Shown here piece by piece: positions 877 through 52,754 of a stretch of 64,000 nt of DNA. The position numbers were made by a program, and so were the translations under genes. The stretch lies in the IMG/VR virus record IMGVR_UViG_3300042893_001849; one strand, given 5' to 3'. The DNA is from a virus. The first letter of the stretch is position 1; each line of letters opens with the position of its first letter. The notes under the pieces were generated by a model. The model worked only from the letters and a program-made list of their open reading frames with translations, ran no database searches and was not told the origin of the DNA.

Positions 877-1656
877 TTATTTTTTATTTATTTTTGTAAA
901 TTGAGGTTTCCACTTACTTAATTCTTGATTAAATGTTAGATTTTTATGTTCTAATTCTAATAAATGAAATACCTTTCCATCAGGAGTACAATCTCGTGAA
1001 CCACCTTTTTCAACTGTAGTACTACGTTCAAAATGGATTATTGGTGAGTTAAAAATATATGCTCCTTTATAATTTGAACTATATAATTTTGAATAAATAT
1101 AATCATCACCATAGAAAAAAGTTAAATCTTTTGGGATTTGACTATAAAAAGATTTCCTAAAGGTTATATCCCATCCTTGTCTATAAGGTTGTTCCATAAT
1201 TTGATATTCCAATAAATCAGACCAACATGAATAATTTAAATTATTGGTTACATGATTTACAAAACCAACTAAAGGCTCTTTTTCTAATACTGAAATTGAT
1301 GTTGATAGAAAATTAGGAGGTAACCTAACATCATTATTTAATAAACATAAAAAATCTGTTGATGAGGTATTAACAAATTCATTCCATAGGTGATTTAGAG
1401 GACGATTATACCCTGTGTGTATTATTTCCAAAAAATTTATTTTACCATTAAATTCACCATTATTGTATTGTAAAAAAAAATTATTGAAAAAGTCATTAGT
1501 ACCTTCTTCCAAACTATTTTGGTCAACTAACCTTAAATTAAATTCTACATCTTGATTTAATAAATCTTCAATACACTGTTTTGTGTATAATAGATTATTA
1601 AGGTTAACTACGAGTACTGAAATTTTAACAGACATATTTTTTTTTAATAAAATCAT
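877..1656 (-). CDS. Family-2 glycosyltransferase (GT-A fold).
   Basis: N-terminal ISVLVVNLNN...CIEDLLNQ followed by LNNDV and GDDYIY acidic motifs, typical of GT2. Contains an A9 homopolymer at 1472-1480. Confidence 0.5.
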   Translation of the reverse strand: MILLKKNMSVKISVLVVNLNNLLYTKQCIEDLLNQDVEFNLRLVDQNSLEEGTNDFFNNFFLQYNNGEFNGKINFLEIIHTGYNRPLNHLWNEFVNTSSTDFLCLLNNDVRLPPNFLSTSISVLEKEPLVGFVNHVTNNLNYSCWSDLLEYQIMEQPYRQGWDITFRKSFYSQIPKDLTFFYGDDYIYSKLYSSNYKGAYIFNSPIIHFERSTTVEKGGSRDCTPDGKVFHLLELEHKNLTFNQELSKWKPQFTKINKK

Positions 1657-1728
1657 GATTTATTTGGTTTTTGGGCATAACTCATACTTTGTTAAAAAAC
1701 ATAAGTGATTTATTCAATAAAATCTATA

Positions 1729-1911
1729 TTATTTGCGAATGGTGATTTTTTTATCCTCGTTACTTTTATACATTTTTAAAAGTTTTAAAGAATCGTTGTA
1801 ATGTTTTTCTAACCTATCAAGCTCTTCTACAGGTACACAACTCTCACAGGCATTGTTGTATTGCTCTTCAGCTTCTTTAATAATTTTCTCTATCGTTTTG
1901 AGAAGTTTCAT
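1729..1911 (-). CDS. Hypothetical small protein.
   Basis: 60 aa ORF lying in the operon with the GT2 and MTase genes. Confidence 0.35.
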   Translation of the reverse strand: MKLLKTIEKIIKEAEEQYNNACESCVPVEELDRLEKHYNDSLKLLKMYKSNEDKKITIRK

Positions 1912-2009
1912 ATCTCATAAATATACATTATTGGTGTCTTTATTTGTTTTTTAATAAAACTATCTTTTAAAATGTATAAAAAGCCAGAATCTGGTTATTT
2001 ATTATAGAC

Positions 2010-4247
2010 ATGAGCGAACCATACGACATTTATTTATTTGAGGACTGTAACGATTCCACAAACTTATTCAGATTTGAGAATATCCCAGGGACACTAACTG
2101 AAGGATATGTGTATAGTATTGTAGGAGGTACTGGATTTACAGGATTTGCCAAAGTGGTTACATATAATGAAGAAGGTCCTATATACTCAACTAATGGAGT
2201 AATTTTTACGGGAGGAGAAACTCAATGTCCTACACCAACTCCAACACCAACTCCGACAACAACTCCTGAATCTAGCCCAACACCAACTCCGACACCAACC
2301 GAGGAATTAATGCCTATGTTATTTAGTGTACCATCAGGGTGTGGTTATTCAGTATTTTGTTTCTATACTTATTTGCCGTCATTATCGGGTTATAGCGGTA
2401 ACTATACTGAAGGAGCAACATATGCTGGAGCTCCAACTTATTCTGGAGACGGAACAACTGCAGGCGTAATTTATTATAATAGTGGAGTAACGGAAAGTTA
2501 TTGGTGTTTATCTAATACTCTTGGAGGAACTTGTGTTTTACAAGGAGCGACACCATGTTATTCAGATTGTCCTGATATTGCGGCAAATGATTTTTATAGT
2601 GGTGTTTGCCCTACACCTACACCAACTCAAGTTAATTGTTCAACATTTGACTTTAATGCCTATTTTGACTGCGATTGGGAGCCACTTCCAACACCAACAC
2701 CAAGTGTCGCGTGTGATGATATTAACTTTATAGTTGATACTATTGGAGTTACTCCAACACCAACACCTACTGGTGACATTTGTAATGGAGTGGGTATCTC
2801 ATTTGTTATGAGTGGATACACACCAGCAGTTACACCTACAATAACATTAACACCTTCAGTTACATTAACAAATACTGTTCCTGTAGGAGGTCAAGTAACA
2901 TTCCCAATGATAGACGAAACATTTAGTTGTGTATCTGTTAAGGTATTAACAGATTGTCAATCAGGTGATGAATTTTATGTTACAGACGGTCTTTCATTTA
3001 TGGGAGTTCCTGTTGTAATTGGAATGACTATTTTAGTTGAACTTAACGGAGGATACCATTGTGTTAGTTATACTAGAGATGATTCAAACTTCTCATCAAA
3101 TACTGTGGTTGGAGATATCGTACAACTTTATTCGGTTTGTGAATACTGTAGTATTATTCCAACACCAACACCAACTATTACAACAACGCCAACTATTACA
3201 CCAACAAGTTCTCAAACACCAACACCAAGTATTACTGCAACCGCAACATTAACGCCATCGCCAACGTCAACTTTTGGAAGTACTCCACCACCAACACCTA
3301 ATCCAACAAGTACGCCAACACCAACTAATACACCAACACATACAATGACACCAACACCTTCAACAACACCTAATTATGTTTATGTGTATGAAAGTTGTTC
3401 ACCAATATATCCTAACTTGTTACCAACACAAATGATTCAAACACAAAAAGTGACATTTGTGTCTCAACCTGGAGTAATTTTTAAAGACTTACTTAATACT
3501 TGTTGGAACTACATTGGTAGATTTGATTCAACATACATTGCACCACCAACTGTATTACCTGTAACGTATTCAGGAAACTATTTTGATGGCTCACCTTCAA
3601 TAACTTATGCCACTTGCGTATCTTGTGAGGAAACACCAGCTAGATTGGGGGGATGTCAACAATATCAATATTGGAGTGGAACAAGATGTGATAATGACCA
3701 AACAATAATTGTTAAGAGTTGTTATTCTGAGCCTACCCAAATTACAATTAACATATTTGAATTTGGGGTTGCTGGTACGACAACAAGTTATTTAGACTTC
3801 AACGTTAAAGTTGGAGAAATTGCGGTAGGTAATGATGGAACTAATGATTTCTGTATCACAATCAATAGTGAAGTAGGCGTACAAAATGCAAGTTATACTG
3901 TATCAAAACCTTTTGTAAGTACGATTACATCATGTTCTTCTTGTCCGACATATAGAAAATATACTGCAAGGGCTTGTGACGATAGTGAACAAAACGTAAC
4001 AATATATACACCAACAAGTGTTGCACCGTTTGCATTTGCAGGTAGTGATGGAGGAAATATTGTTAGTGTTAGTACAAGTAGTCTTTGTTATACTATTCTA
4101 AATTATGATGGTATTGTAACAGATTATTACATTACACCAAGTACTGCAAAATTTGTAGTTCAAGGATTTGCTGACTGTCAAGTATGTGCTGACGCATATA
4201 CTGCATCAATAAGTGGTGGAGGCGGAGGAGGAGGCGGAGGTTCATAA
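2010..4247 (+). CDS. Cys-rich virion-associated protein with PT repeats (probable tail or fibre component).
   Basis: 745 aa with multiple (TP)n linkers separating Cys-rich globular segments and a Gly9 C-terminus. The nested short ORFs are repeat artefacts. Confidence 0.55.
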   Translation: MSEPYDIYLFEDCNDSTNLFRFENIPGTLTEGYVYSIVGGTGFTGFAKVVTYNEEGPIYSTNGVIFTGGETQCPTPTPTPTPTTTPESSPTPTPTPTEELMPMLFSVPSGCGYSVFCFYTYLPSLSGYSGNYTEGATYAGAPTYSGDGTTAGVIYYNSGVTESYWCLSNTLGGTCVLQGATPCYSDCPDIAANDFYSGVCPTPTPTQVNCSTFDFNAYFDCDWEPLPTPTPSVACDDINFIVDTIGVTPTPTPTGDICNGVGISFVMSGYTPAVTPTITLTPSVTLTNTVPVGGQVTFPMIDETFSCVSVKVLTDCQSGDEFYVTDGLSFMGVPVVIGMTILVELNGGYHCVSYTRDDSNFSSNTVVGDIVQLYSVCEYCSIIPTPTPTITTTPTITPTSSQTPTPSITATATLTPSPTSTFGSTPPPTPNPTSTPTPTNTPTHTMTPTPSTTPNYVYVYESCSPIYPNLLPTQMIQTQKVTFVSQPGVIFKDLLNTCWNYIGRFDSTYIAPPTVLPVTYSGNYFDGSPSITYATCVSCEETPARLGGCQQYQYWSGTRCDNDQTIIVKSCYSEPTQITINIFEFGVAGTTTSYLDFNVKVGEIAVGNDGTNDFCITINSEVGVQNASYTVSKPFVSTITSCSSCPTYRKYTARACDDSEQNVTIYTPTSVAPFAFAGSDGGNIVSVSTSSLCYTILNYDGIVTDYYITPSTAKFVVQGFADCQVCADAYTASISGGGGGGGGGS

Positions 4248-4250
4248 TAT

Positions 4251-4898
4251 ATGAATACTTTTGAAAAAATTGCAGAAAATAATCAATATTTTTTTTATCA
4301 AAGAGGACAGGTAAAAACAAGTAATATTTGGAATCGACCATCTTACAATGTTCTTAAAGAATTTTTAATTGAAATTAAAAACACAACAAACATTCTTGAA
4401 GAATATGAGTTGTATTTGATGGGAGGAGTTTTATATGATTTTAATAAAACATGGGACGTTGATTTTTGTATAACAGGTCCATTGAAAGACCAAAATGTTT
4501 TGGAATCATATATGAATACCATGTATGATTTATCATTAAATAAGTATAAATTTTTAATTGATATACAGTGGCTCGAACAACCACTACCACAAGTTTCCTA
4601 CCAAGAAATCACTTCACCTGAGTTTAACCATTATAGATTAAAATACATTAAAACGTCTTATATCGTAAAACAAATAGGGGAAGAAAAATCAATTAGTGAT
4701 TTAAGAGAAAAAGAAGGTATAACCAAATTAACAGAATTTTTGGTTGAAGGTACACATGAAGAATATCCTGGTAGAAAAGAAAAAATAGTTAATAGAATAT
4801 TGAATAATCCTGATAAAGTATTAAAATCAGTATTTAACGTAAAAACTTTTTTAGAAACAGACGAGGAGTATTTCCTCACTAATACAAATAGATTTTAA
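4251..4898 (+). CDS. Hypothetical protein.
   Basis: 215 aa ORF, tightly packed after the previous gene. Confidence 0.45.
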   Translation: MNTFEKIAENNQYFFYQRGQVKTSNIWNRPSYNVLKEFLIEIKNTTNILEEYELYLMGGVLYDFNKTWDVDFCITGPLKDQNVLESYMNTMYDLSLNKYKFLIDIQWLEQPLPQVSYQEITSPEFNHYRLKYIKTSYIVKQIGEEKSISDLREKEGITKLTEFLVEGTHEEYPGRKEKIVNRILNNPDKVLKSVFNVKTFLETDEEYFLTNTNRF

Positions 4899-4911
4899 AG
4901 TATTTATTAAT

Positions 4912-5130
4912 ATGGCGGTACAAGTAACAATTAATGGTATAACAGGTCAGTCTCCTTATGATGTTTATATATGTCAGTCAAACGGAACAGGGTGTTTTTA
5001 CATTTCAACAACATCTGTGATACCATATGTGTTTGATATACCTGCGCCATATAATAATTCAGTTTCTTATATGTTAAAAGTTATTGATTCAAATAATTGT
5101 ATCATATCGGGAACAACACTCGTACAATAA
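4912..5130 (+). CDS. Small protein with an SprB-like repeat domain.
   Basis: VTINGITGQSPYDVYICQ...YMLKVIDSNNC resembles a degenerate SprB repeat (GGxxPYxY...VxDxNGC). Paralogous to the N-terminus of the next gene. Confidence 0.5.
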   Translation: MAVQVTINGITGQSPYDVYICQSNGTGCFYISTTSVIPYVFDIPAPYNNSVSYMLKVIDSNNCIISGTTLVQ

Positions 5131-5837
5131 TGGGACAACAAGTAACAATAACATCAGTAACCGCAAATACACCTGTAGAAATATACTATTGTGATTCTAT
5201 GAGCGCAAGTTGTGTCTACGTCGCAACAGTTTCAACTTTCCCATTTAGTTTCGATGTTTCAAGTCCTTACGACTTAACAGATTATATAATTCAAATAGTA
5301 GATGTTAATGGATGTATCGATACTGATACAATTCTTATTACACCAACACCGACACCCAGTGTTACACCAACTAATACCATAACTCCAACTAATACTCCAA
5401 CTAATACACAAACACCTACACGAACGCCAACTAATACCATAACTCCAACTACAACAATTACAACAACGCCAACACAAACACAAACACCTACCGCAACACC
5501 TGTTGTTTCAGTTCACGCAATTGGACAAAATTCTTATACATCTTCAGCAAGTACTTGTAATGATGTAATGAGTGTTAACAATCTATATTGTTATATTAAT
5601 CAAGCCAATACAATCCCTGTTATTGGAGTTAAAGTTTATTCTAATTTGTATAACGGAGTTTTATATTCAATATACAATGGAATGAACAAATGGATTCTGA
5701 TGGCTTGGGGAGGGTTCTTTTATTCAGTTCAGATAGACACATCAGGAACGATTATTAACTATGCCATTTGTACTAATTTAATTACACCAACACCAACATT
5801 AACCTCGTCACCAACACCAACACCTACGACCACATAA
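5130..5837 (+). CDS. SprB-like repeat protein with a PT linker (paralog of 4912..5130).
   Basis: Start reassigned to the ATG overlapping the upstream stop (TAATG). MGQQVTITSV...YYCDS...CVYV...IVDVNGC is followed by a long TP repeat. Confidence 0.5.
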   Translation: MGQQVTITSVTANTPVEIYYCDSMSASCVYVATVSTFPFSFDVSSPYDLTDYIIQIVDVNGCIDTDTILITPTPTPSVTPTNTITPTNTPTNTQTPTRTPTNTITPTTTITTTPTQTQTPTATPVVSVHAIGQNSYTSSASTCNDVMSVNNLYCYINQANTIPVIGVKVYSNLYNGVLYSIYNGMNKWILMAWGGFFYSVQIDTSGTIINYAICTNLITPTPTLTSSPTPTPTTT

Positions 5838-5910
5838 CAAATAAACCTATACAAAAAACACTTAAAACCTATAATTATAGGTAATACTAAAAACTAACCA
5901 ACCAAAACAA

Positions 5911-8520
5911 ATGGCGTTATCAACAACTTGTGGAAATTGTTACTCTTATACCTACATAGCAATGGGTTCTGGTACCATTTATTGGACAAACTTTAACGGG
6001 TTTTCCGATTCTGCGTTTGTTAATGCTGGAGGTAGTTATTATATTGCTTGTGCCATTGAAGATACATTAACAGGCGATGGAACATTTAGTCAAGGAGATT
6101 TTTGTGGTAATGTACCATGTCCTCAAGAAACATCCACACCTGCACCAACTACTACACTAACAGCAAGTAATCCAATTACACCAACGCCAACAACAACGTT
6201 AACCACAACTCCAACACAAACAAGAACACCAAATCCAACTCCATCAACAACACCTATTAGGTGTGGAGAAGCTGTTACAACAGGAAGTTATTATTACATT
6301 GACTGTTGTGGTAATTTTATTCAAGGAACTGAAGTAGGTCTATTGGTGACAATGGATTATACTAAAAGAGGTCTATCAAATGGTGTTACATTATTAAATA
6401 ATGTTGCAACAGTTAGTTGTCCTACACCTACTCCAACACAAACTCCAACATACACACCAACAAATACAACAACTCCTACAATAACACCGACAAATACAAC
6501 AACACCAACACTTACAAGAACACCTAATGTAACTCCAACTAACAGCCAAGTTCTTAAATTAAAGAATGAATGTGACGTGTTTACATTATTTGAAATGGGA
6601 GTTCAATGTAAACCAATCTTACAACCAAAAACATCAACATCTTTGGATGGTATTTTGTCGTTAACAATAACGGGAGGTACAAGTCCTTATTCATATTATT
6701 GGAAAGGTGGACAAAGAAATCAAACTTTAGTTGGAGTACGTCAAGGTACTTATGAAGTTGTCGTGGTTGACTATTATGGTGATTATACTGCAAGTACAGT
6801 ATGTTCATTAGTTGCTCCAACACCAACCGCAACACCAACTCAAACAGTTACTCCAACAGTAACACCTTCAGGTATTTGTCCTAAATTATGTTTAATTGCA
6901 ATTTCTTCAACAGAAGCAATCGGACCTTATCAATTTGTTGGTAGTGGTAATAAGAATGGTAAGACAACTTGGACATACAACGGACAACTTAATATTGTTT
7001 GGTCTATTACTAGAAATCGTTGGGAGATTCTTCAATCAGATATGTCTACGCCATACACCCCTAATGGAGGAGGTATATTCGCTAGTACAACAACATCTTA
7101 CTACCCTGATAATGGATGGGCAATTATTGGAGGTACAGTTGCATATTCAGTAACAATGAATCAAGGAGATTGTCCAGCGTCAGTACCATTACAGGCGGTT
7201 GCAACTGTCCAAAATAGTAGTTGTAATTCAACAGTTAATGCTAACGGGTCAATTACTATTTCTGCAAAGTATGGTGTAATTCCTTATTCATATTCTATTG
7301 ATGGTGGAATTACATATCAAAGTAGTAATAGTTTTAATGGATTAAGTCCAAAAACATATAATGTAATAACTCAAGATTACGCGGAAAATGTGATAACTCA
7401 GACAGTTACTGTTGGGTATGACGAATCGCCTGTGACATATCAATTAACAATAAGCGCTAATACGGATAACGTTATAAGTTCTGTACAACCTAATAGCAGT
7501 TCAAGACAAACAACAGTACAGGTAGTGACAACACCTGAATTACCTAATGGAGTTACTATAGAATTTGAATTAGTGTTATCGTCTACAAAAACATATAACG
7601 GACCTGGTACGGGATATATAGGCGAAAATTTCACAGTCAGTCAAGGAGGAGTTGAGATAACACAAACAGCTGCAGAATCGTCAAGCGAAACAGGAACGAG
7701 ACCTAACTGCAGTCCTTCAGAACAAACAATTGTGAGTAGTGCCACCACTTATACATTAGAGATTAGTAATTCATCACCTGTGATAATTGTTGACAACTCA
7801 ACTTTATCAATAACTGACGGACAATATAGTGACAACTGTTTAACAAATTTAAGTCAAGAAATATTTGCGCAATTAGTAACACCACAGATTAAAGGATGTA
7901 GTTGTTGTTTAGTTGTTGCAGATGCACAACGTAATTCAATCAATAGTAATAGTTTGGATTATACACCAAACGCAGAGACACCACCAGAGACAACTCAAGT
8001 ATACTATAGTATCTATGATTGTGTAAACAACGAAGGTTATTACACTCAGGCATATACAAATGGAAAATTTGTAGAACCATTTGAGGCTCCATTCCAAAGA
8101 GTGTACGGGTATATACCTGGTAATCCTGCTAGTACATCGTTTACTGTTCAAGGTAAAACATATACATCTCAATCAACTGCCATATCGGTATATACTAGTG
8201 GATATCAAACGGGATGTCCTTCACCGTACGTACCAGACCCTCCACCACCAGGTCAATCTTATCTTACAGATTTAACAGGATTCGCTAGTGCGTCATCATG
8301 TTGTACAAACGGAAATCCATTTAATACTCCAGTTACTAGTAAGTACATGGCAGCTGAAGATTCAGTGCCTGTTGAAGGGAACTATGTCTATAACGAACCA
8401 GCTTTAGAAACTTTTTATAATGGAGGATTTAACTATCATAAAATGCGTAAAGGAAGTGCTAATTATGCCGTACAAATTGGAGCTATAGGTCAAATTTTAG
8501 ACGTACAAGTATGTTCATAA
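5911..8520 (+). CDS. Large PT-linker structural protein carrying SprB-type repeats (candidate adhesin or receptor-binding protein).
   Basis: GGTSPYSYYWKGG...GTYEVVVVDYYGDYTASTVC and CNSTVNANGSITISAKYGVIPYSYSIDGG...GLSPKTYNVITQDYAENV match the SprB repeat consensus. Several TP/TPT linkers. Confidence 0.6.
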   Translation: MALSTTCGNCYSYTYIAMGSGTIYWTNFNGFSDSAFVNAGGSYYIACAIEDTLTGDGTFSQGDFCGNVPCPQETSTPAPTTTLTASNPITPTPTTTLTTTPTQTRTPNPTPSTTPIRCGEAVTTGSYYYIDCCGNFIQGTEVGLLVTMDYTKRGLSNGVTLLNNVATVSCPTPTPTQTPTYTPTNTTTPTITPTNTTTPTLTRTPNVTPTNSQVLKLKNECDVFTLFEMGVQCKPILQPKTSTSLDGILSLTITGGTSPYSYYWKGGQRNQTLVGVRQGTYEVVVVDYYGDYTASTVCSLVAPTPTATPTQTVTPTVTPSGICPKLCLIAISSTEAIGPYQFVGSGNKNGKTTWTYNGQLNIVWSITRNRWEILQSDMSTPYTPNGGGIFASTTTSYYPDNGWAIIGGTVAYSVTMNQGDCPASVPLQAVATVQNSSCNSTVNANGSITISAKYGVIPYSYSIDGGITYQSSNSFNGLSPKTYNVITQDYAENVITQTVTVGYDESPVTYQLTISANTDNVISSVQPNSSSRQTTVQVVTTPELPNGVTIEFELVLSSTKTYNGPGTGYIGENFTVSQGGVEITQTAAESSSETGTRPNCSPSEQTIVSSATTYTLEISNSSPVIIVDNSTLSITDGQYSDNCLTNLSQEIFAQLVTPQIKGCSCCLVVADAQRNSINSNSLDYTPNAETPPETTQVYYSIYDCVNNEGYYTQAYTNGKFVEPFEAPFQRVYGYIPGNPASTSFTVQGKTYTSQSTAISVYTSGYQTGCPSPYVPDPPPPGQSYLTDLTGFASASSCCTNGNPFNTPVTSKYMAAEDSVPVEGNYVYNEPALETFYNGGFNYHKMRKGSANYAVQIGAIGQILDVQVCS

Positions 8521-8541
8521 CAATTAAAATATTTATAAAAG

Positions 8542-10737
8542 ATGTCATATATTATTAAAAATACTGCAGCGTTAATTAACACAAGGTTAACAGACGTTGG
8601 AAGAAGAAATATCTCTCAAGGAAATTTCAACATATCGTATTTCCAAATTGGAGATAGCGAGGTTAGTTATAGTGCTGTAACAAACTATAATCAAACCAAT
8701 AATAATATTTTGATGCCAGCGTTCAATGCTCAGAATGACACTGGTTCACCTCAATCAAACAAACAAAATATTAAGTACCCTTATTATGTTGAAGGAAGTG
8801 CGGGTAACACATATGGTATTCCATTTATGGATAACCAAATTCAATCAGTATATAATTCAGCAGGACCAAAAGGATTTTTTACAACAGGTAATACATTAAT
8901 TGAAACTTCTTCGGCCTATACAATCACTTCTAGTTATTGGATGGATATGTCAACAATTACAGGACAAAATCAAATTGAAATTGAGTTTGATAATAGTCCT
9001 ACTTCATGTTCTTCAACAGGAACCCCCGCAATTAATGATTTTGTTACAATAGTTTTTGATGGTGATGGAGGTTGTGGTAATTTTGGTACTAATCAAATTT
9101 TGACTTATAAAATTAAAAACATGACTCCTGTGACAGGAACAACAGGAAGTACGTTCACCATTACATTAGATAGGGTATTACCAAATTATGTCGGTTTACC
9201 TAGCCCAAGTAATGCGAGACTTTATGTTTATCCATCAGGGATGACTCAATTATATGACTTTATAACACCAGCACCATTTTGGCAGACCGACACTCTTAAC
9301 TTTGAATCACCTTGTGATGTTACAAATCGAGAGAATACTTTAATTTGGAATATGAATATTCCTTGGAGTGAAAATCCTGCGGGTCTTTACCCAAGTAATT
9401 ATGAAAGTTATGCAAACTATGGTTCTGTTTCTTACATTGGAACTAAAGAATATTTAGGTTATCAAGAGCCAAGTGGACAAACAGATACAAGTAAAGTTTA
9501 TTTTTATAACTCATTTGATGAGCAAATAATAGTTACACCAAAAGAACAAAAGGCGATTGCTATTATACACTACACCAATCAAGACATTGATAATGTTTAT
9601 GGCGAAAAATTTGCAACACAACCATACGACCCACAGAATCCAACTGATGATATCGGATTAGCAAGACATTTTAAGTTAACTATGCCAACATTGATGTGGC
9701 ATAAATCAACAGGGACAACTATCGGACAAACGTTTTGGATAGACCCTCCAGGTTATGATTTATGTATACCATATTATATCAAATCAACTGAGAACCTTGA
9801 TATGAATGACCCTGGTATTAGATACTATCATCTATGGGATACAAACCCTGATAGTAATGGTAACTTGAATAGAATTGGTAAAGTATTCCCTGACCAAGAA
9901 ATTGTTGTTGTCGATGATGAGGAAGTTATTGCTGCAATGTCTTATAAGTCAAATAGAAATTGGACATTACCAGCTCCTAAACTTTCATTATTAACACCTA
10001 ACGCTTGTTCGTCTGAAAGTGTGACACAATCTGGATTAATGACAAGCCCGACTGAAAGAATGTGGGTAACGTATAGATTTGATACAAATACAGGTGCTAC
10101 AAGTTCACTTCATTGTAATTACTATACTTCTATTCAACCTATCAATGCAGTTACCGCTAACACACAAAACGTTGCAGTTAGATTCGGGCCTGAATTTACA
10201 TTTATGTCTCAACAACAATTCGATGGATATTCAGCGACATCTATGAAATTATTATGCCAAATAGTTACAGGTGATACAAGACCATCATCAACTGCTTGGA
10301 GAGTAATCGATGTTACAACTGCAATGACTCTATCAAATGGTTATATCACTATGGATGGTATTACTCAAACAACGTTTCAAATTACCACCGATAATTACAA
10401 TCCAACAACAGGAGCAACCTATTATAATTTAGGTCCAATTTTAGAATTACCTGAAAATGGACAAACAAACCAATTGAATTTTGGAGATGAGTTCTACTTC
10501 TATGGTAATTTGGAAACTGATATTACCGCAACAATTTATGAGATGAAATATCTTGTCAATCTTGGGCGTAATCAATTTACCAACACGTCAAATCCAACTT
10601 GGAGTAAGGGTACAAAATCATATGTTACTGAAATTGGTCTTTACGATTCTAATAAAGACCTTATTGTTATATCTAAGTTACAGTCTCCTGAATTACGTCA
10701 AGGTATTCAGCAGTATGTAGTTAAATTAGATTTCTAA
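8542..10737 (+). CDS. Hypothetical large protein (probable structural or tail protein).
   Basis: 731 aa, Ser/Thr/Asn/Gly-rich, directly downstream of the SprB-repeat genes. Confidence 0.45.
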   Translation: MSYIIKNTAALINTRLTDVGRRNISQGNFNISYFQIGDSEVSYSAVTNYNQTNNNILMPAFNAQNDTGSPQSNKQNIKYPYYVEGSAGNTYGIPFMDNQIQSVYNSAGPKGFFTTGNTLIETSSAYTITSSYWMDMSTITGQNQIEIEFDNSPTSCSSTGTPAINDFVTIVFDGDGGCGNFGTNQILTYKIKNMTPVTGTTGSTFTITLDRVLPNYVGLPSPSNARLYVYPSGMTQLYDFITPAPFWQTDTLNFESPCDVTNRENTLIWNMNIPWSENPAGLYPSNYESYANYGSVSYIGTKEYLGYQEPSGQTDTSKVYFYNSFDEQIIVTPKEQKAIAIIHYTNQDIDNVYGEKFATQPYDPQNPTDDIGLARHFKLTMPTLMWHKSTGTTIGQTFWIDPPGYDLCIPYYIKSTENLDMNDPGIRYYHLWDTNPDSNGNLNRIGKVFPDQEIVVVDDEEVIAAMSYKSNRNWTLPAPKLSLLTPNACSSESVTQSGLMTSPTERMWVTYRFDTNTGATSSLHCNYYTSIQPINAVTANTQNVAVRFGPEFTFMSQQQFDGYSATSMKLLCQIVTGDTRPSSTAWRVIDVTTAMTLSNGYITMDGITQTTFQITTDNYNPTTGATYYNLGPILELPENGQTNQLNFGDEFYFYGNLETDITATIYEMKYLVNLGRNQFTNTSNPTWSKGTKSYVTEIGLYDSNKDLIVISKLQSPELRQGIQQYVVKLDF

Positions 10738-10739
10738 CT

Positions 10740-11342
10740 ATGGTCGAAAATAAATTAAAAGAAAGCCCTAAAGTTTTAGGATTAGATGTTTCTACTCGAA
10801 CAATCGGAGTAGCTTTGTTTGATATTCAAGATAAAATATTATTAGAATTAACCCATATATCACCAGTTCCAAAACCAAAAGTTGAGAATAAGATTGAAGA
10901 ACTAATTTTAAAAAGTAATATTTTTAGAGAAAAACTTAGAGGATATGTTGGTATGGGAATTACCAGTGTAGTTATCGAAGAGCCACTTCTAAACTCAAAC
11001 AACGTATATACAGTTGGAACCTTAATGAGGTTTAATACTTTAGTATGTAAAGAAGTTTATGAAATATTAGGAGTTGTGCCTGAATTCATTTCAACATATA
11101 ACTCAAGAAAATTTGCATTCCCACACCTAGTTCAATCAAATGACAAAGGAAAACACGTTTTATTTGGAGGTCTACCAAAAGATATAGATAAAAAAGTTAT
11201 TATATGGGAATTGGTTGCAAAAAAAGAACCACAAATTATTTGGCAATACACCAAAAACAACACACTCAAGAAAGAAAACTTTGACCAATCTGATGCCTAT
11301 TGTGCAGCCCTTGGTTATATGAAGATGAAAGAAATTTGGTAA
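10740..11342 (+). CDS. RuvC-like Holliday junction resolvase.
   Basis: VLGLDVSTRTIGVALFD (catalytic Asp motif I), VIEEPLL (Glu) and a C-terminal DQSDAYCAALGY (DxxDAxxxAL motif). Confidence 0.55.
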   Translation: MVENKLKESPKVLGLDVSTRTIGVALFDIQDKILLELTHISPVPKPKVENKIEELILKSNIFREKLRGYVGMGITSVVIEEPLLNSNNVYTVGTLMRFNTLVCKEVYEILGVVPEFISTYNSRKFAFPHLVQSNDKGKHVLFGGLPKDIDKKVIIWELVAKKEPQIIWQYTKNNTLKKENFDQSDAYCAALGYMKMKEIW

Positions 11343-11370
11343 ATCCAAACCTTTTCACTATCTTTGTGGT

Positions 11371-11736
11371 ATGCCACGATATACCATAGACGACACCGAA
11401 TCCAAAGCTATTAAGAAATCACTTGTTAAATGGGGAGAAATTCCTGTTAGAAATCAAGGCCTTAAAGGTACTATCATAATTAAAAATTATCGTAAGTATC
11501 AATATAGAAGTGAGGTTGATATTGAATTCAAGGGAGAAATTTTTGTTAGACTCTATAACGAAAATAGAAAGTGGTATAGTTCCGACATCATTACTAATGG
11601 AAGAGTTAGTGTTTCCAAAGTCAAATTAAATCGATACATCAGAAAAAACTCTTTGAAAGATATTCAAATGAGAATGAGATATTTTGGTGTTAATATAGAT
11701 GAGTATCAGAATGTCAACAAAATAAAATGGTCTTAA
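11371..11736 (+). CDS. Hypothetical protein.
   Basis: TATCTTTG promoter box 4 nt upstream of the ATG. Confidence 0.45.
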   Translation: MPRYTIDDTESKAIKKSLVKWGEIPVRNQGLKGTIIIKNYRKYQYRSEVDIEFKGEIFVRLYNENRKWYSSDIITNGRVSVSKVKLNRYIRKNSLKDIQMRMRYFGVNIDEYQNVNKIKWS

Positions 11737-11919
11737 TATGATAATAATTGCCTATATATGGATTTTTTTCCTTATGTTCACCTCAATATTTTTTGTTATG
11801 ATGATAACGGTTGAAAAAAATATTGATGAAAATTCACGATTTGGTAAATGGTGGAGAAACAACATAATTGGGATAGAACCAAAAGATGACATTACCGAAT
11901 AATTTACTATCTTTATAAT

Positions 11920-19525: not shown

Positions 19526-20413
19526 ATGAAAACACCAATTAGATACGCAGGAGGGAAGAGTAAAGCGATTAAAATAATTACACCATTTGTTAGTGGCGTA
19601 GACAAAATAGTTTCACCATTTTTAGGTGGGGGTTCTTTAGAGGTTCATTGGGCTTCAATGGGTAAACAAGTTATTGGATATGATTTATTTGATGTTCTTG
19701 TTAATTTTTGGAATGTATTGTTGAATAACAAAACAGAGTTTGTTGAGAAACTAAAAGAAATCGCCCCAACATCAGAAGAGTATTCTCGAATTAAGGAAAT
19801 TTTGATGAAATGGGATAATACCCAAGATATGTTGAAAGATTGGAAAACAGAACATTACAAAAGAGAGGATATAATTAGATTAGACAATATTACAGCAGCC
19901 GCGTATTATTATTTTAATCATAACACATCTTATGGACCAGGTTACTTAGGTTGGGGTTCATCAGTGTATCTACAACCAAAGAAGTGGAGTGATATGATTA
20001 ATAAGATATCTAAATTTGATTTACCAACGTTATCGGTAAATCAAGGTAGTTTTGAAACCGTCTTACCAAAACATACTAAAGATTTTTTATATCTTGACCC
20101 ACCATATTACCTTGAAAAAGATTCTGATAATAAAATGTTTACAGGGATTTATCCCATGAGAAATATTCCTGTACATCACAATGGTTTTAATCACGAATTA
20201 TTGAGAGATTTACTTAAGGCTCACAAAGGAGGATTTGTATTGTCGTATAATAATTGTGAGACTATTCGTGAATACTATAGTGAATTTGAATTACACTACC
20301 CAAGTTGGAGTTATTCGATGGGTAATGGGGAAAAACGAATCGGTAAGAATAGAATTGAGGCTGGTATTACCAACTCTAAAGACTCACACGAGATATTAAT
20401 AGTAAAAAGATAA
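19526..20413 (+). CDS. dam: DNA N6-adenine methyltransferase (Dam/D12 class).
   Basis: IRYAGGKSK N-terminal motif and a DPPY catalytic motif. Confidence 0.8.
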   Translation: MKTPIRYAGGKSKAIKIITPFVSGVDKIVSPFLGGGSLEVHWASMGKQVIGYDLFDVLVNFWNVLLNNKTEFVEKLKEIAPTSEEYSRIKEILMKWDNTQDMLKDWKTEHYKREDIIRLDNITAAAYYYFNHNTSYGPGYLGWGSSVYLQPKKWSDMINKISKFDLPTLSVNQGSFETVLPKHTKDFLYLDPPYYLEKDSDNKMFTGIYPMRNIPVHHNGFNHELLRDLLKAHKGGFVLSYNNCETIREYYSEFELHYPSWSYSMGNGEKRIGKNRIEAGITNSKDSHEILIVKR

Positions 20414-23520: not shown

Positions 23521-24318
23521 ATGAAAGAAAAATCATCAATTCCTATCAATCAAGAAGAGATTAGTAATTACTTGAAGGACATTCGTAAACTGAAAGTAAT
23601 GACTCCTGAAAGAGAACGAGAGTTAGCTGAAAGAATGCTATCTGGTTTTATAACAGAAGAAGAAACAAAAGAAATTCAAAAAGAACTTTTGGAAGGTAAT
23701 CTACGTTTTGTTATTACCGTGAGTAAACAATATCAAAACCAAGGGTTGGACCTACCTGATTTAATTGCGGAAGGTAACCTTGGATTGATGAAAGCAATCG
23801 AGCATTTCGATTGGTCTAAACAATTAAGATTCATATCTTATGCCGTTTGGTGGGTTCGCCAATCTATCTTGCAATCATTGAATGAAAATGCAAGAACCAT
23901 CCGTCTACCAGTAAACGTGGTTCAAGAATTGCATAAAGCAAAGAAAGAATTGGAGAAGGCAGGTGTTGACCTACCTGAAAAATTCGTAAACTTACCTTAT
24001 ACGGTGAACTTGGATAGTCCATTGAACGAGGAGGGAGATACGTTATTGGATGTGTTGAATAACCCTAATGCTGATTTGGCAGATGCCAATCTATCTACGG
24101 AACAGACATTAAAAGAGAAGTTATTATCAATGTTGGACGTTTTGGATGAGAGAGAAAAAATAATTATTCAAGATTATTTCGGGTTGTCTGGTTCAACAAG
24201 AACCTTGGAAGACATAGGTAATGACTTTGATTTAACCAAAGAAAGGGTTCGACAGATTAAGGAAAAAGCTCTTCGAAAATTAAGAAATGAAACAGCTATT
24301 CTTTTCGAATATCTATAA
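23521..24318 (+). CDS. RNA polymerase sigma factor (sigma-70 family).
   Basis: Region 2 (NLRFVITVSKQY...DLIAEGNLGLMKAIEHFD) and region 4 (TLEDIGNDFDLTKERVRQIKEKALRKLR) helix-turn-helix. Confidence 0.8.
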   Translation: MKEKSSIPINQEEISNYLKDIRKLKVMTPERERELAERMLSGFITEEETKEIQKELLEGNLRFVITVSKQYQNQGLDLPDLIAEGNLGLMKAIEHFDWSKQLRFISYAVWWVRQSILQSLNENARTIRLPVNVVQELHKAKKELEKAGVDLPEKFVNLPYTVNLDSPLNEEGDTLLDVLNNPNADLADANLSTEQTLKEKLLSMLDVLDEREKIIIQDYFGLSGSTRTLEDIGNDFDLTKERVRQIKEKALRKLRNETAILFEYL

Positions 24319-32175: not shown

Positions 32176-33099
32176 ATGAAAGATTACTATAAAATTTTAG
32201 AAGTTGAAGAGAAAGCGTCCGCAGATGAGATTAAAAAATCATACAGAGCACTTTCAAAGAAATATCACCCCGATGTAAATCCTGATGGAGCAGAACAATT
32301 TAAGGGAATTGCTGAGGCATATGACGTACTAAGTAATCCAGAAAAGAAAGCCAAATACGATAGTTCAAAATCAAATCCATTCGAAGGAACAGCTTATGAA
32401 GATATGTTCTCACAGATGTTTAGGAATGGAGGTTCTCCGTTCAGACAACAAAAAAGAAAAAACGCCCCTGATAAAATAGTGAAGGTAGTTATTACTCCTA
32501 TTGAATCATACTTAGGTGTGGAAAAAGATATTCATTATATTAAGGAAAACCATTGTAACATTTGTAGTGGAACAGGTGGGGAACAACAACAATGTACGAC
32601 ATGTAAGGGACAAGGGTTTGAAGTAAAAACATATGGTACTGGATTCATGGTACAACAAATTAGAACTAATTGTAGTACCTGTGGTGGTAAAGGATACACT
32701 TTGGTACACAAGTGTTATAACTGTGGAGGGAATGGTACCAAATCTTTGGCGAATAGTGTTAAAATAAAATTACCTGTTGGTATTGATTCAGGACAGTATT
32801 TAAAACTTGAAAATGCTGGTGATTTTAAACACGGAGACTATGGGGATTTAGTTATTCAAATTGAAGTTGTGAGTAAAGACGGGTTTGAAAAATTGAATAA
32901 CGATTTAATATATAATCTTTACCTTAATTTAGAAGAGGTCCAAAAAGATAAGTTCCTAATACCACACCCAAATGGGGATTTAAGTATGGGTTCACCACGT
33001 TTATTTGACACCTCAAGACCTTTAAGACTTAAAGGTAAGGGATATAATGGAGGGGATATGTATGTTAAGTTAAATGTTAAGTTTGAACGACCTATTTAG
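32176..33099 (+). CDS. dnaJ: DnaJ-like chaperone (J domain plus CxxCxGxG zinc fingers).
   Basis: DYYKILEV...SYRALSKKYHPDVNPD J domain and four CxxCxGxG repeats. Confidence 0.8.
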   Translation: MKDYYKILEVEEKASADEIKKSYRALSKKYHPDVNPDGAEQFKGIAEAYDVLSNPEKKAKYDSSKSNPFEGTAYEDMFSQMFRNGGSPFRQQKRKNAPDKIVKVVITPIESYLGVEKDIHYIKENHCNICSGTGGEQQQCTTCKGQGFEVKTYGTGFMVQQIRTNCSTCGGKGYTLVHKCYNCGGNGTKSLANSVKIKLPVGIDSGQYLKLENAGDFKHGDYGDLVIQIEVVSKDGFEKLNNDLIYNLYLNLEEVQKDKFLIPHPNGDLSMGSPRLFDTSRPLRLKGKGYNGGDMYVKLNVKFERPI

Positions 33100-33355: not shown

Positions 33356-34198
33356 ATGGCATTATCATACATCGGAGGTAAATCTAAAATTGGTAAATGG
33401 ATTGTACCGTTCTACCCTAACGACATGGAGACATACGTTGAACCATTCTCAGGAATGTTTTGGTGCTTCTTCAATACGAACTTAAATCAGTTCCCAAACT
33501 TAAAGAGAGTCGTTTATAACGACTTTAATCCATTAAACTATAACTTGTTCCAATGTTTACAGAACCCGTCTCAATTGTTAGATGAGGTCAATGCAATACC
33601 TTGTCAACAACAAGGGGTTAGTGTAACACCTGCAATATATAAAGAACAATTTATCAGGTTCCAAGCTGAAATTTTTGCTCAAGACTTCAGGGTACAACCT
33701 TATGATTATGTTATTGCCGCCAAATATGCTTACGTATTGTCACAAGTATTTTCAGGGTCTAAACCTGAAACAAGTTCATTCATTGATTTAAAAGGTAAAT
33801 ACAAGTCAAAATATCTAACCTTTAGAGATAAGTTAAGTAAACCTGATTGGGTTGAACATTTCTTAAGAATCAGTCATGTTGAGAATTTAGACTTCCAAGC
33901 GGTTATTGATAAGTATGATTCACCATCGACTTATATCTATTTGGACCCTCCATATTGGAAGACGGAGAACTATTATAATAATCATGATTTTGATAGAGAA
34001 GACCACGAAAGACTTGCAAACGTATTAAATAACGTACAGGGTAAATTTAGTTTATCGTATTACGATTTTGACTTATTACACACATGGTACCCTGAAACTA
34101 CGTTCAGATGGGAGAAAAAGGAATTCGCAAAAGCTGCTGCCGCAAAAAAAGGTGTAAAACAAAATATGGGTGAAGAGCTACTTATATTGAATTATTAG
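33356..34198 (+). CDS. DNA N6-adenine methyltransferase (Dam-like), second copy.
   Basis: LSYIGGKSK N-terminus, FSG motif and DPPYW catalytic motif. Confidence 0.75.
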   Translation: MALSYIGGKSKIGKWIVPFYPNDMETYVEPFSGMFWCFFNTNLNQFPNLKRVVYNDFNPLNYNLFQCLQNPSQLLDEVNAIPCQQQGVSVTPAIYKEQFIRFQAEIFAQDFRVQPYDYVIAAKYAYVLSQVFSGSKPETSSFIDLKGKYKSKYLTFRDKLSKPDWVEHFLRISHVENLDFQAVIDKYDSPSTYIYLDPPYWKTENYYNNHDFDREDHERLANVLNNVQGKFSLSYYDFDLLHTWYPETTFRWEKKEFAKAAAAKKGVKQNMGEELLILNY

Positions 34199-34242: not shown

Positions 34243-35565
34243 ATGAAATTTACGTCGTTATTAAAAAACATCATAGCAGAACAATCAAGGTTTGAAGTTT
34301 TGTTTAATGCTTTGACAAAACCAAGTGAGGATAAGAATGGTGTTAAGGTAAAACCCAAGCTAGATAAGAAAGAATTTATTGAATTAGTTAAGGCAGACCC
34401 AACAACAAAATTGAATAATATTGAAATTGATACGGCGAATTCTGACCAATTAGCTAAGGTAAAGGCGGGAGCGTATGTTCAATGGTTAATTAAGAATTAT
34501 TTAAACCCGAAGACTGAAAGACAGTATGGTGATAATGGTTATGAAAAAGAGGTTAAGCAGGTTAAAGCGACTTTTATGGAAGACCTTTATAAAGTTACTG
34601 ATGACCTTAAAAAGTTTGAAAGATTCAAAGGTAGATTACCTAAAGAATTAAGAGATATTAATAAGATTACTCCTGACCAACTATATGACGCGGTTAAAGA
34701 TTTTGATTTAACATTGGCATCAACAACTAAAGCTGAAAGAAAATCTGCTGAGGTTCACCCTGGTGCTAAATTAATGTATGACGGTGATAATTGGAGAGTA
34801 ATTGAAATTAAAGATAAGGGAGTTGTTGGTAAAGAGGCGGCTTGTTTCTACGGTGGTAATAACCAAGAAACAAGATGGTGTACATCTGCACCTGGTGCTT
34901 CATGGTTTGATAGATATATTAAGGATGGTCCTTTATATGTGATATTCAATCCAAACGATACAGACCTTGCTCCATCAACAGGATTACCTAAAACTCGTTA
35001 TCAATTCCATTTCCCATCAAACCAATTTATGGATAAGGATGACCGTCAACAAGATTTGGTTCAATTACTTAACGGACCAATGGCAGAATTGAAATCATTC
35101 TTTAAACCTGAGTTTGCTAAAGGTCTTACTGTGGGTGGAGAGAAATTGGTTATTGATAGTTTCAGTCATGGAGCAATCGGTAAGTTCATCGCTCTTTATG
35201 GTTTAGATGATTTAATTGGAAGTTTACCTGAATCACTAAAAGAATTCCAAATTCAAAACAGAGGTAATGATAACAAAAACGTTATTATTACTATCCCTGA
35301 AGAGATTGGAAGATTTAAAGATTTGAATATGATTCTATTGGATAACTGCATTACATCTATCCCTGAATCAATCTGTACATTACCTAAATTGAGATTCTTA
35401 GCGTTAATTAATAACCCTGAATTAAGAACAATTCCTGATTGTATTGCAGATTTACCTAATTTATATTTCTTGAACTTGAAAGGTTCTACCAATGTTGAGG
35501 TACCTGAAGCGATTAAGGCTAAAGGAACTGATATGGGCGGAGGTATGTGGGACCTTCAAGACTAA
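34243..35565 (+). CDS. Protein with an N-terminal conserved domain (paralog of 43192..44793) and C-terminal leucine-rich repeats.
   Basis: ACFYGGNNQETRWCTSAPGASWFDRY matches SCYYGKGTKWCTAAETDTHF in 43192. The C-terminal region has LRR-like periodicity (LxxLxLxNxxIxxIP). Confidence 0.45.
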   Translation: MKFTSLLKNIIAEQSRFEVLFNALTKPSEDKNGVKVKPKLDKKEFIELVKADPTTKLNNIEIDTANSDQLAKVKAGAYVQWLIKNYLNPKTERQYGDNGYEKEVKQVKATFMEDLYKVTDDLKKFERFKGRLPKELRDINKITPDQLYDAVKDFDLTLASTTKAERKSAEVHPGAKLMYDGDNWRVIEIKDKGVVGKEAACFYGGNNQETRWCTSAPGASWFDRYIKDGPLYVIFNPNDTDLAPSTGLPKTRYQFHFPSNQFMDKDDRQQDLVQLLNGPMAELKSFFKPEFAKGLTVGGEKLVIDSFSHGAIGKFIALYGLDDLIGSLPESLKEFQIQNRGNDNKNVIITIPEEIGRFKDLNMILLDNCITSIPESICTLPKLRFLALINNPELRTIPDCIADLPNLYFLNLKGSTNVEVPEAIKAKGTDMGGGMWDLQD

Positions 35566-47299: not shown

Positions 47300-47701
47300 A
47301 TGGAAAAGATACACATAGAGGGAGACCCTAAATTAAAAAATAATCCTGGTAAACAATTCTCAATGTTTATCGGAAGATGGCAACCGTGGCACGATGGACA
47401 CAGATGGTTAATAGACCAAAGACTTGAACAAGGTAAGAATGTTTTAATCTGTATTAGAGACATTGAACCTAATGAACAGAATCCATTCACAGCACAAGAG
47501 GTTCAAGAGAATATTACGGTTAAGTTATTAGATTTAATTCGTGAGGAAAGAGTTATTGTGATGGTAATACCTGATGTTGAGTCGGTAAACTTTGGAAGAG
47601 GAGTTGGTTATGATATCATAGAACATTTACCACCACAAGAAGTTAGTGAAATATCGGCAACTAAAATTAGGGAACAATTAAAACAAGAAGGTAAATTATA
47701 A
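47300..47701 (+). CDS. Cytidylyltransferase-superfamily nucleotidyltransferase (HxGH; NMNAT/TagD-like).
   Basis: FIGRWQPWHDGH (GxFxPxHxGH) and a C-terminal ISATKIRE (the ISxTxIR motif of TagD/NMNAT). Confidence 0.55.
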   Translation: MEKIHIEGDPKLKNNPGKQFSMFIGRWQPWHDGHRWLIDQRLEQGKNVLICIRDIEPNEQNPFTAQEVQENITVKLLDLIREERVIVMVIPDVESVNFGRGVGYDIIEHLPPQEVSEISATKIREQLKQEGKL

Positions 47702-48549
47702 TGTTAGAAACAAATAAAATAATCCAAGGAAATTGTGTTAACGTAATGGCGAATCTTCCTGAGTCATGTGTCGACTTGATAGTAACGTCACCACCATACA
47801 ATGTAGGAATTGATTATGATAGTTATGATGACAAACAATCAATGGAGGACTATTGGCAGTTTACAAAAGATTGGTTGTCTGAGTCTTACAGACTTCTTAA
47901 AGATGACGGAAGAATTGCGGTAAACATTCCATACGAAGTAAACGTACAAGATAGAGGTGGGAGAATATTGTTTATGTCTGAGTTTTATCAAATCATGAAA
48001 AATCTTGGATTTAAATTCTATGGACTTGTGGACCTTGACGAGAACTCACCACATAGAAGTAAGACTACCGCATGGGGTTCATGGATGAGCCCATCAAGTC
48101 CTTATATCTATAATCCAAAAGAATGTGTAATCTTGGCTTATAAGAAAGACCGTATTAAAAAAGTTAAGGGTGAACCACAATGGAAAGGAGAGTTGGTTGA
48201 TTTAGAACAAGAAGATGGTACAATCAAACAGAAGATGGTATACCAAGAAGAAGATAAGAAAGAGTTTATGAGTTTGGTATATGGTCAATGGGAATACTTT
48301 GCGGACACCAAACAACAAACTAAAGCCACTTTTTCAATGGATATTCCAATGAATGCAATTAAGATTCTTACATATAAAAATGATATTGTTCTTGACCCTT
48401 TTACAGGTAGTGGAACTAGTTTAGTCGCAGCCGAAGTTAGTGGAAGACGATGGTTAGGGATAGAGTTAAGTGAGAATTATACTAAAGTGGCTAAAGAAAG
48501 AGTTCAACACTTTATAGATAAGAATCGACAAATGGGATTAGGTTTATAA
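47701..48549 (+). CDS. DNA methyltransferase (N6-adenine or N4-cytosine; DPPY type).
   Basis: DLIVTSPPYN catalytic motif near the N-terminus and DPFTGSGTS SAM-binding motif near the C-terminus. Confidence 0.8.
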   Translation: MLETNKIIQGNCVNVMANLPESCVDLIVTSPPYNVGIDYDSYDDKQSMEDYWQFTKDWLSESYRLLKDDGRIAVNIPYEVNVQDRGGRILFMSEFYQIMKNLGFKFYGLVDLDENSPHRSKTTAWGSWMSPSSPYIYNPKECVILAYKKDRIKKVKGEPQWKGELVDLEQEDGTIKQKMVYQEEDKKEFMSLVYGQWEYFADTKQQTKATFSMDIPMNAIKILTYKNDIVLDPFTGSGTSLVAAEVSGRRWLGIELSENYTKVAKERVQHFIDKNRQMGLGL

Positions 48550-52650: not shown

Positions 52651-52722
52651 CGCGAGGTAGAGCAGTGGTAGCTCGGAAGGCTCATAACCTTTAGGTCGGT
52701 GGTTCGAATCCATCCTTCGCAA
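52651..52722 (+). tRNA. tRNA-Met (anticodon CAT), initiator-like.
   Basis: Hand-folded cloverleaf: acceptor CGCGAGG/CTTCGCA with a C1:A72 mismatch, D arm GAGC-AGTGGTA-GCTC, anticodon arm GAAGG-CTCATAA-CCTTT, and T arm GGTGG-TTCGAAT-CCATC. No CCA is encoded. Confidence 0.7.
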
Positions 52723-52754
52723 CAAAAAATAGTTTAACTATTTTTCATAAAGAA

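Follow-up and report, generated by a model that had tools for sequence, protein, structure and literature searches.

Two SprB-type Ig-like repeats in a modular Thr-Pro-linker protein of an uncultured freshwater jumbo phage

A 64,000-nucleotide stretch of viral DNA, IMG/VR record IMGVR_UViG_3300042893_001849 (hereafter the window), carries on its plus strand a tight block of six open reading frames (ORFs) whose products are named here for their lengths in residues: p745, p215, p72, p235, p869 and p731. The largest of these, p869, holds exactly two genuine SprB-type immunoglobulin-like (Ig-like) repeats, set among unrelated domains on flexible Thr-Pro linkers. A prediction made earlier from the DNA alone had described at least two such segments in p869; the segments are real, and their number is exactly two. 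The reading of p869 favoured here, with a probability of roughly 0.55, makes it a fibre or decoration protein of modular build that acts outside the cell and is encoded by an uncultured freshwater jumbo phage; for it we infer both a virion or extracellular location and an adhesive function.

Both peptides originally quoted as SprB-like are present in p869, at residues 255-298 and 438-466. Compared with the Pfam SprB family (PF13573), the whole protein scores 31.4 bits (E 1.5e-7) in two stretches, above the gathering score of 28 bits, and the profile check proposed with the original prediction thus gave a match. Taken singly, however, repeat 1 reaches 25.1 bits (E 1.4e-5) and repeat 2 only 19.2 bits (E 9e-4), each under the gathering score, and the match is confined to a short model of 37 residues. 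These two facts could be taken to mean that the matches are a chance resemblance of low-complexity or Cys/Gly/Tyr-rich sequence. That view must contend not only with the score of the whole protein but also with the precomputed PF13573 label borne by many p869 homologues; the family-typical version of repeat 2, taken alone, scores 26.1 bits.

Comparison with cellular proteins is more telling. When 185,579 species genomes were scanned for the motif [VI]TGGTSPYS, 279 relatives came back, nearly all in metagenome-assembled genomes (MAGs) of Bacteroidota. The ORFs at these loci encode giant proteins of 1,500-5,700 aa with 7-58 GGxxPYxY motifs, and in cases such as L010, L032 and L077 Pfam recognizes 13-17 SprB stretches together with a CHU_C or Por_Secre_tail sorting domain. 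Against a set of 100 repeats cut from these Bacteroidota giant proteins, profile-profile alignment with hhalign gives 98.9% for repeat 1 (E 3e-17, 47 columns) and 98.2% for repeat 2 (E 3e-14, 66 columns), extending past the Pfam model, and finds no match between the same cellular repeats and the remaining four domains of p869. In tblastn searches of 74 cellular SprB loci, repeat 1 yields 1388 significant high-scoring segment pairs (HSPs) at 73 loci and repeat 2 yields 178 at 54 loci, with 45-55% identity over 45-66 residues to the best cellular repeats. A custom hidden Markov model (HMM) built from cellular repeats detects exactly two domains in the six-frame translation of the window (128 kb), both in p869, with independent E-values of 1.6e-13 and 1.9e-8. 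Because of the hhalign, tblastn and custom HMM results, a chance origin of the SprB matches is effectively refuted. The two repeats of p869 are themselves only distantly alike by hhalign.

The structural context in which these repeats occur is that of a string of small beta domains. The AlphaFold2 model of p869, computed from a 30-sequence alignment, contains confident beta domains of 6-7 strands at residues 5-70, 116-168, 227-300, 322-420, 428-505 and 508-690, joined by disordered linkers and followed by a low-confidence C-terminus (691-869). In the model each SprB repeat comprises six strands, with predicted local distance difference test (pLDDT) values of 72-91, and the SprB segments are predicted to form an Ig-like beta-sandwich. 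Structural searches with Foldseek against the PDB return tandem Ig-like arrays, including fragments of Aureispira GhpA, and integrin legs. In the viral structure database BFVD, the top matches are entries titled “SprB repeat [uncultured Caudovirales phage]” (E 5e-20); further matches comprise tail proteins, virion structural proteins of cyanophages and a protein of a Polaribacter phage. Full-length fold searches were unable to assign the non-SprB domains of the protein.

Conservation is distributed very unevenly along this chain. Across 120 homologues, median identity is 82% in repeat 1, 22% in the N-terminal domain and 21% in the C-terminal region. The second Thr-Pro linker, at 86% median identity and with many invariant Thr and Pro residues, is more conserved than most of the globular domains, which is unexpected for a simple spacer. 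The linkers, which the original prediction had correctly placed in p869, p235 and the Cys-rich p745, correspond at the DNA level to imperfect ACA-CCA tandem repeats. Most of the 26 cysteines of p869 are 97-100% conserved. Particularly informative is the C444/C479 pair of repeat 2 (7240..7242 and 7345..7347), for which 117 of 121 sequences have both cysteines, 4 have neither and 0 have a single one; this phage is among the four, with Ala and Ser instead. Joint loss only is the signature of a disulfide, and the pattern suggests one that is dispensable.

At the termini, modules appear to move between proteins. Homology to the C-domain of p235 (blastp E 1.6e-4) is seen in the final ~60 residues of p869, which also match PHROG 21885, of function unknown (E 1e-7). 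A Cys-containing module of ~90 aa (C.APTLNS.TL.SGSLF.Y...TPTNC...) occurs both in an upstream giant protein with Pro-Thr (PT)/Gln linkers and as an insert in some members of the p869 family; these are, respectively, the 1121-aa PT-rich protein upstream of the glycosyltransferase (GT) cluster at L006 (1..2067) and the N-terminal regions of P0014, P0047 and P0072. The C-domain of the 1121-aa protein matches PHROGs 28536 and 17490 (function unknown) and has no relatives in IMG/VR. As judged from such sequence matches, modules are shuffled among neighbouring PT-linker proteins. One homologue, P0011, carries at residues 843-914 a Pretoxin-HINT domain (PF07591, 30.5 bits) instead of the usual variable C-terminus, which may be an autoprocessing module. 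A reading of p869 as a polymorphic toxin was considered and rejected, as nothing follows the HINT domain in P0011 and p869 has no such domain.

The original prediction had described the two small proteins encoded just upstream, p72 and p235, as paralogues carrying degenerate SprB repeats, and they are indeed paralogues of each other: p72 is 37% identical (E 1e-15) to the N-terminal 70 residues of p235, the two sharing a ~70-aa domain with the motif ITGxSPYDIYIC...YxLKVIDxNGC. Their proposed SprB nature did not hold up. Neither protein matches PF13573 even at E<=10 or the custom SprB HMM at E<=1, and neither has a tblastn match to the 74 cellular SprB loci. In hhalign, their N-domain aligns with SprB repeats only marginally, at 58% over 26 columns, which is no better than its 66% over 61 columns with fibronectin type III (FN3) repeats of unrelated proteins. 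The domain is thus not demonstrably SprB. Exhaustive HMMER searches find it in 251 cluster representatives, nearly always at residues 1-70. Among 137 listed matches with a single N-terminal copy, 77 consist of the domain alone and 60 are longer, and in 45 of these 60 a PT/Ser-rich stretch follows directly. In its distribution the ~70-aa N-domain resembles a docking module that many proteins share and that carries variable cargo behind it.

The genes of the block and other features of the window are collected in Table 1. The ORFs of p745, p72, p235 and p869 lie where the original prediction had put them, and the ATG of p235 overlaps the TAA stop of p72 as TAATG. Pfam scanning finds no SprB repeat in p745. 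No signal peptide or transmembrane segment is apparent in any block protein by hydropathy. For p869, whose N-terminus reads MALSTTCGNCYSY, the top 12-residue hydropathy is 0.53 and no signal peptide is indicated by this simple hydropathy test, which is not a dedicated predictor; nor does Pfam find a C-terminal domain of the type IX secretion system (T9SS), either CHU_C/TIGR04131 or Por_Secre_tail. A promoter and terminator scan of positions 1600-11400 gave counts not higher than those of shuffled controls.

Table 1. Features of the window discussed in the text (Cys, cysteine; positions are those of the 64,000-nucleotide stretch)
Feature	Position	Strand	Description
GT2 glycosyltransferase	877..1656	-	Pfam E 4e-7; window-proximal member of divergently transcribed glycan-enzyme cluster
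p745	2010..4247	+	745 aa; Cys-rich, with Thr-Pro linkers; first in block; PHROG 15511 (function unknown)
p215	4251..4898	+	215 aa; between p745 and p72; nucleotidyltransferase match sub-threshold only
p72	4912..5130	+	72 aa; stand-alone copy of ~70-aa beta domain
p235	5130..5837	+	235 aa; N-domain, Thr-Pro linker 69-124, C-domain, PT tail
p869	5911..8520	+	869 aa; modular beads-on-a-string protein; >895 homologues (clusters)
p869, variable N-terminal beta domain	5923..6120	+	Residues 5-70; pLDDT ~90; other modules in some homologues
p869, Thr-Pro linker 1	6121..6255	+	Residues 71-115; pLDDT <50; imperfect ACA-CCA tandem repeats
p869, small Cys-rich beta domain	6256..6417	+	Residues 116-169; C118, C132, C133 and C170 97-100% conserved
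p869, Thr-Pro linker 2	6418..6546	+	Residues 170-212; from composition and conservation
p869, SprB-type Ig-like repeat 1	6589..6810	+	Residues 227-300; most conserved globular module
p869, Thr-Pro linker 3	6811..6870	+	Residues 301-320; from composition and AlphaFold2
p869, beta domain between SprB repeats	6871..7182	+	Residues 321-424; from AlphaFold2; no Pfam match
p869, SprB-type Ig-like repeat 2	7192..7425	+	Residues 428-505; C444/C479 replaced by Ala, Ser
p869, large conserved beta-rich domain	7429..7980	+	Residues 507-690; from AlphaFold2; no Pfam match
p869, variable C-terminal region	7981..8517	+	Residues 691-869; aligned in 52 of 120 homologues
p731	8542..10737	+	731 aa; follows SprB-module gene in every relative
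DNA methyltransferase gene	19526..20413
DNA methyltransferase gene	33356..34198
DNA methyltransferase gene	47701..48549
Sigma-70-type factor	23521..24318
DnaJ homologue	32176..33099	+	~32% identical to annotated dnaJ of phage records; strong PHROG 14336 match
Leucine-rich-repeat protein	34243..35565
tRNA-Met	52651..52723		Single tRNA

In close relatives the gene order runs from a minus-strand glycan-enzyme cluster through a p745-like gene, the 215-aa gene, the 72-aa gene and genes for 235-like, 869-like and 731-like proteins to a RuvC-like resolvase and a primase. The p215 gene is kept in close relatives and missing in L084 and L008. The product of the last gene of the block, p731, has more than 4000 matches, the best 120 of which are all at least 80% identical, and sequence searches of Pfam, PHROG and PDB leave it without a match; its AlphaFold2 model, computed from 25 aligned sequences that are at least 80% identical, reaches a pLDDT of only 32.5 and was kept out of the fold search. 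In eight more distant relatives (L122, L124, L127, L129, L135, L138, L146 and L160), the SprB-module gene comes after the gene for another SprB-motif protein (711-1082 aa, 1-3 motifs), and a conserved ~1000-aa protein is also encoded upstream of that gene at the same loci.

The window belongs to a jumbo phage of an abundant freshwater lineage of ~300 kb. The phage nature of the replicon, as originally proposed, is borne out by the genes it encodes, which include a RuvC-like resolvase, a DnaG-type primase, an exonuclease, SbcD, SbcC, DNA methyltransferases and a sigma factor, and by the occurrence of the p869 family on IMG/VR viral contigs. These contigs are up to 326 kb in length, with five of 317-326 kb (L088, L096, L104, L107 and L120), and the family is also found on a 294-kb JGI contig (L084). 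Identical copies of p869 occur in assemblies from Lake Mendota and other freshwaters. Among the phages of INPHARED there is no match to positions 4000-12000 by megablast, or to p869 and p731 by tblastn.

By common traits alone, the lineage resembles the moraphages, a group of aquatic, mainly freshwater jumbo phages with 25 published genomes of 200-307 kb for which Bacteroidota hosts have been predicted (PMC12619734). The likeness extends to freshwater origin, to genome size (200-307 kb for the moraphages and contigs of 294-326 kb here) and to the possession of a primase, an exonuclease subunit, a sigma factor, several glycosyltransferases and DnaJ; proteins of the p869 block are unmentioned in that account. 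Hints about the host from MAG binning conflict with each other: two short contigs carrying the family, L007 and L008, belong to a MAG bearing the title “uncultured Bacteroides sp.”, whereas a third, L009, is binned in an actinobacterial Aquiluna MAG. Relatives of the sigma factor and primase of the window are taxonomically scattered. The SprB repeats provide an indirect hint of a Bacteroidota host.

Another feature of the locus that recurs across relatives is the proximity of genes for glycan-modifying enzymes to those for Thr-Pro-linker proteins. The GT2 glycosyltransferase gene at the left of the window belongs to a cluster that, as seen in L001-L003, extends beyond the left edge of the window, where it encodes a TylF-type methyltransferase and a pyruvyl-transferase/GT1/GT9 protein of 1296 aa. 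Different families occupy this position in distant relatives, which have SprB-module proteins of 25-40% identity: a PF11397 GlcNAc-transferase (E 6e-69), GT34, HtrL, a hexapeptide acyltransferase and an FkbM methyltransferase. Throughout the relatives (clusters at L001 1..5746; L005 2070..5848; L134 3665..5052; L145 3758..7511; L148 1658..3361) a glycan-enzyme cluster adjoins the linker-protein block while its enzyme families change between lineages. A homologue of one such enzyme lies within 10 kb at 40 of 80 IMG/VR loci, a raw count taken over mutually related loci.

With Ser/Thr/Pro-rich linkers and glycosyltransferase genes both present at this locus, the pairing of enzyme cluster and linker genes is no more than suggestive of mucin-like glycoprotein fibres made by the phage. 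A bolder version of this idea, which is advanced tentatively and may well prove wrong, holds that the Thr-Pro linkers would be O-glycosylated in the cytoplasm by a hypervariable phage “glycosylation island” beside them, whose enzyme sets are swapped between lineages, so that jumbo phages of freshwater Bacteroidota would bear mucin-like fibres whose sugar coat and tips diversify together.

How these observations bear on the function of p869 depends on what each part of the protein might do. As a modular fibre or decoration protein, p869 would present small, disulfide-stabilized beta-sandwich domains strung on flexible Thr-Pro linkers, which we infer could be glycosylated by the adjacent enzyme cluster. 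A conserved core between variable ends points to the SprB modules as scaffold rather than specificity determinants; most likely, the SprB repeats and the other core domains would form a conserved rigid scaffold or serve as generic modules of weak adhesion, and binding specificity would reside in the variable domains at the N- and C-termini. In p72 and p235, the shared N-domain would act as a docking module, behind which come a linker and distal domains that vary. As p869 has no export signals, it would reach the outside either on the virion or at lysis. An extracellular destination is supported by the 26 mostly conserved cysteines, with one pair lost only jointly, and a place on the phage surface by the tail and virion proteins among the BFVD matches and by the 713-aa SprB-motif paralogue of L127, which weakly matches PHROG 26672, “virion structural protein” (E 2e-5).

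Several observations weigh against this interpretation. The variable N-terminus of p869 is atypical for tail fibres, which usually have a conserved virion-attachment end. Downstream of the block lie RuvC-like, primase, exonuclease and SbcCD genes, and no capsid, tail or baseplate gene is recognized by PHROG or Pfam in the window or beside the block in relatives: scanning of ~45 additional ORFs of the window and of 10 in the vicinity of L127 recognized only replication, transcription, methyltransferase and chaperone genes and the one weak “virion structural protein” match, the PHROG scans being limited by a lineage too divergent for PHROGs. The neighbouring p731 has no match by sequence, and full-length fold matches of p869 are generically Ig-like, with template modelling (TM) scores of ~0.1, a low value that reflects the floppiness of the multidomain chain in the model.

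Some of these same points lend themselves to a different account, in which the block would encode non-virion proteins made in the infected cell, glycosylated, and then either set free at lysis or bound to the host envelope, with possible roles as decoys, as matrix-binding or aggregation factors, or as factors in superinfection exclusion. The block does have a glycan-enzyme cluster on one side and replication genes on the other instead of lying in a recognizable structural module, its neighbours have no structural PHROG matches, and Cys-rich Ig-like domains argue for an extracellular destination only, not for the virion specifically. Yet with no signal peptide, lipobox or T9SS signal there is no route of export before lysis, proteins of like architecture in the viral structure library carry tail or virion structural labels, and a docking-type N-domain conserved in more than 250 protein clusters fits attachment to something fixed, for instance a capsid or tail. 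This account is considered unlikely. Still less probable is the reading put forward originally, in which SprB modules were captured from a gliding Bacteroidota host and are displayed for adsorption to the gliding surface or for mimicry of SprB, e.g. by binding SprB filaments or partners. Its premises are in part sound: cellular relatives of the repeats occur almost exclusively in Bacteroidota MAGs, in T9SS substrates; PMC9804748 presumes SprB and RemA to be phage receptors and, citing Nelson 2008, places SprB in this role in Flavobacterium johnsoniae, as had been claimed; two family contigs fall in the Bacteroides-titled bin; and the lineage resembles phages whose predicted hosts are Bacteroidota (PMC12619734). 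The details of p869 fit it poorly, however. SprB-type modules account for 2 of ~7 and lie in the conserved rather than the variable part, SprB-specific regions are not present, the repeat serves hundreds of T9SS proteins as a generic building block (PMC7073777), and one family contig is binned with the actinobacterial Aquiluna MAG. Moreover, with 45-55% identity to the best cellular repeats and two repeats that are only remotely alike, there was no recent capture, and any acquisition must be old.

The presence of SprB repeats in p869 is by itself a modest finding, as borrowed Ig-like modules are frequent on phage surface proteins and the SprB type chiefly hints at a Bacteroidota host. The p869 family, with its more than 895 clusters, is nevertheless abundant in lake metagenomes, and a correct description of the largest modular proteins of a barely described lineage aids annotation. 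Of greater potential interest than the repeats is the lead offered by the recurrent pairing of linker proteins with glycan enzymes. Were glycosylation of the linkers to prove true, it would represent a second, independent case of a phage glycosylating its own surface proteins, after the mycobacteriophages, and a tractable model of mucin-like protein production in the bacterial cytoplasm.

Comparison with known systems helps to place both aspects. Like SprB and other T9SS substrates, p869 has repeats of the PF13573 family, marked by GGxxPYxY(x)W and GxYxVxVxD, and the Ig-like sandwich predicted for p869 is common to these proteins and to GhpA. Such repeats occur in very many T9SS substrates besides SprB (PMC7073777). 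The SprB-repeat adhesins, however, have 13-58 tandem copies in 1,500-6,500 aa (the cellular proteins measured for repeat count here had 1,648-5,721 aa, with 13-17 Pfam stretches or 7-58 motifs), together with a Sec signal and a type A or B T9SS C-terminal domain. In contrast, p869 is a phage-encoded protein of 869 aa with neither signal, and its two isolated repeats are set apart by unrelated domains and Thr-Pro linkers. Because it has no T9SS domain, Sec signal or long repeat array, p869 is not an SprB-type gliding adhesin, sharing of that type's defining features only the repeat. The grappling-hook protein GhpA of Aureispira, a T9SS substrate likened to SprB and its solved structural proxy here, is built of Ig-like repeats with intramolecular disulfides, and its Ig-like domains carry O-glycans on Thr/Ser (bioRxiv 10.1101/2024.01.29.577165); the conserved cysteines of p869 are consistent with disulfides of the GhpA type.

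For the glycan enzymes, the closest parallel is offered by mycobacteriophages, whose virions are glycosylated (Freeman et al. 2023, cited in PMC12619734). In both cases, phage glycosyltransferase genes adjoin genes for Ser/Thr/Pro-rich surface proteins. The targets in mycobacteriophages are the C-termini of capsid or tail-tube proteins, whereas the putative targets here are fibres with internal linkers; the enzyme families also differ, and those described here change between relatives. A further parallel concerns the PF11397 family found beside the linker genes in distant relatives. Enzymes of this family include those that transfer GlcNAc to Skp1 in the cytoplasm.

Among phages themselves, accessory beta-sandwich domains on phage-encoded proteins are represented by Hoc of T4 and RB49 and by insertions in major tail and fibre proteins, where Ig-like domains are expected to provide weak adhesion to carbohydrates or surfaces. 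These are I-set, FN3 or Big_2 domains, and p869 differs from their carriers in its SprB-type modules, its long Thr-Pro linkers, the variability of both termini and the location of its gene outside a recognizable structural module. The literature searched contained no discussion of SprB repeats in phages. Three phage proteins already bear the SprB label (A0A6J5LDA4, A0A6J5LD72 and A0A6J5MUM3, each titled “SprB repeat [uncultured Caudovirales phage]” in UniProt/BFVD); their annotation is automatic, and they are only 12-19% identical to p869 and include its best structural match (E 5e-20).

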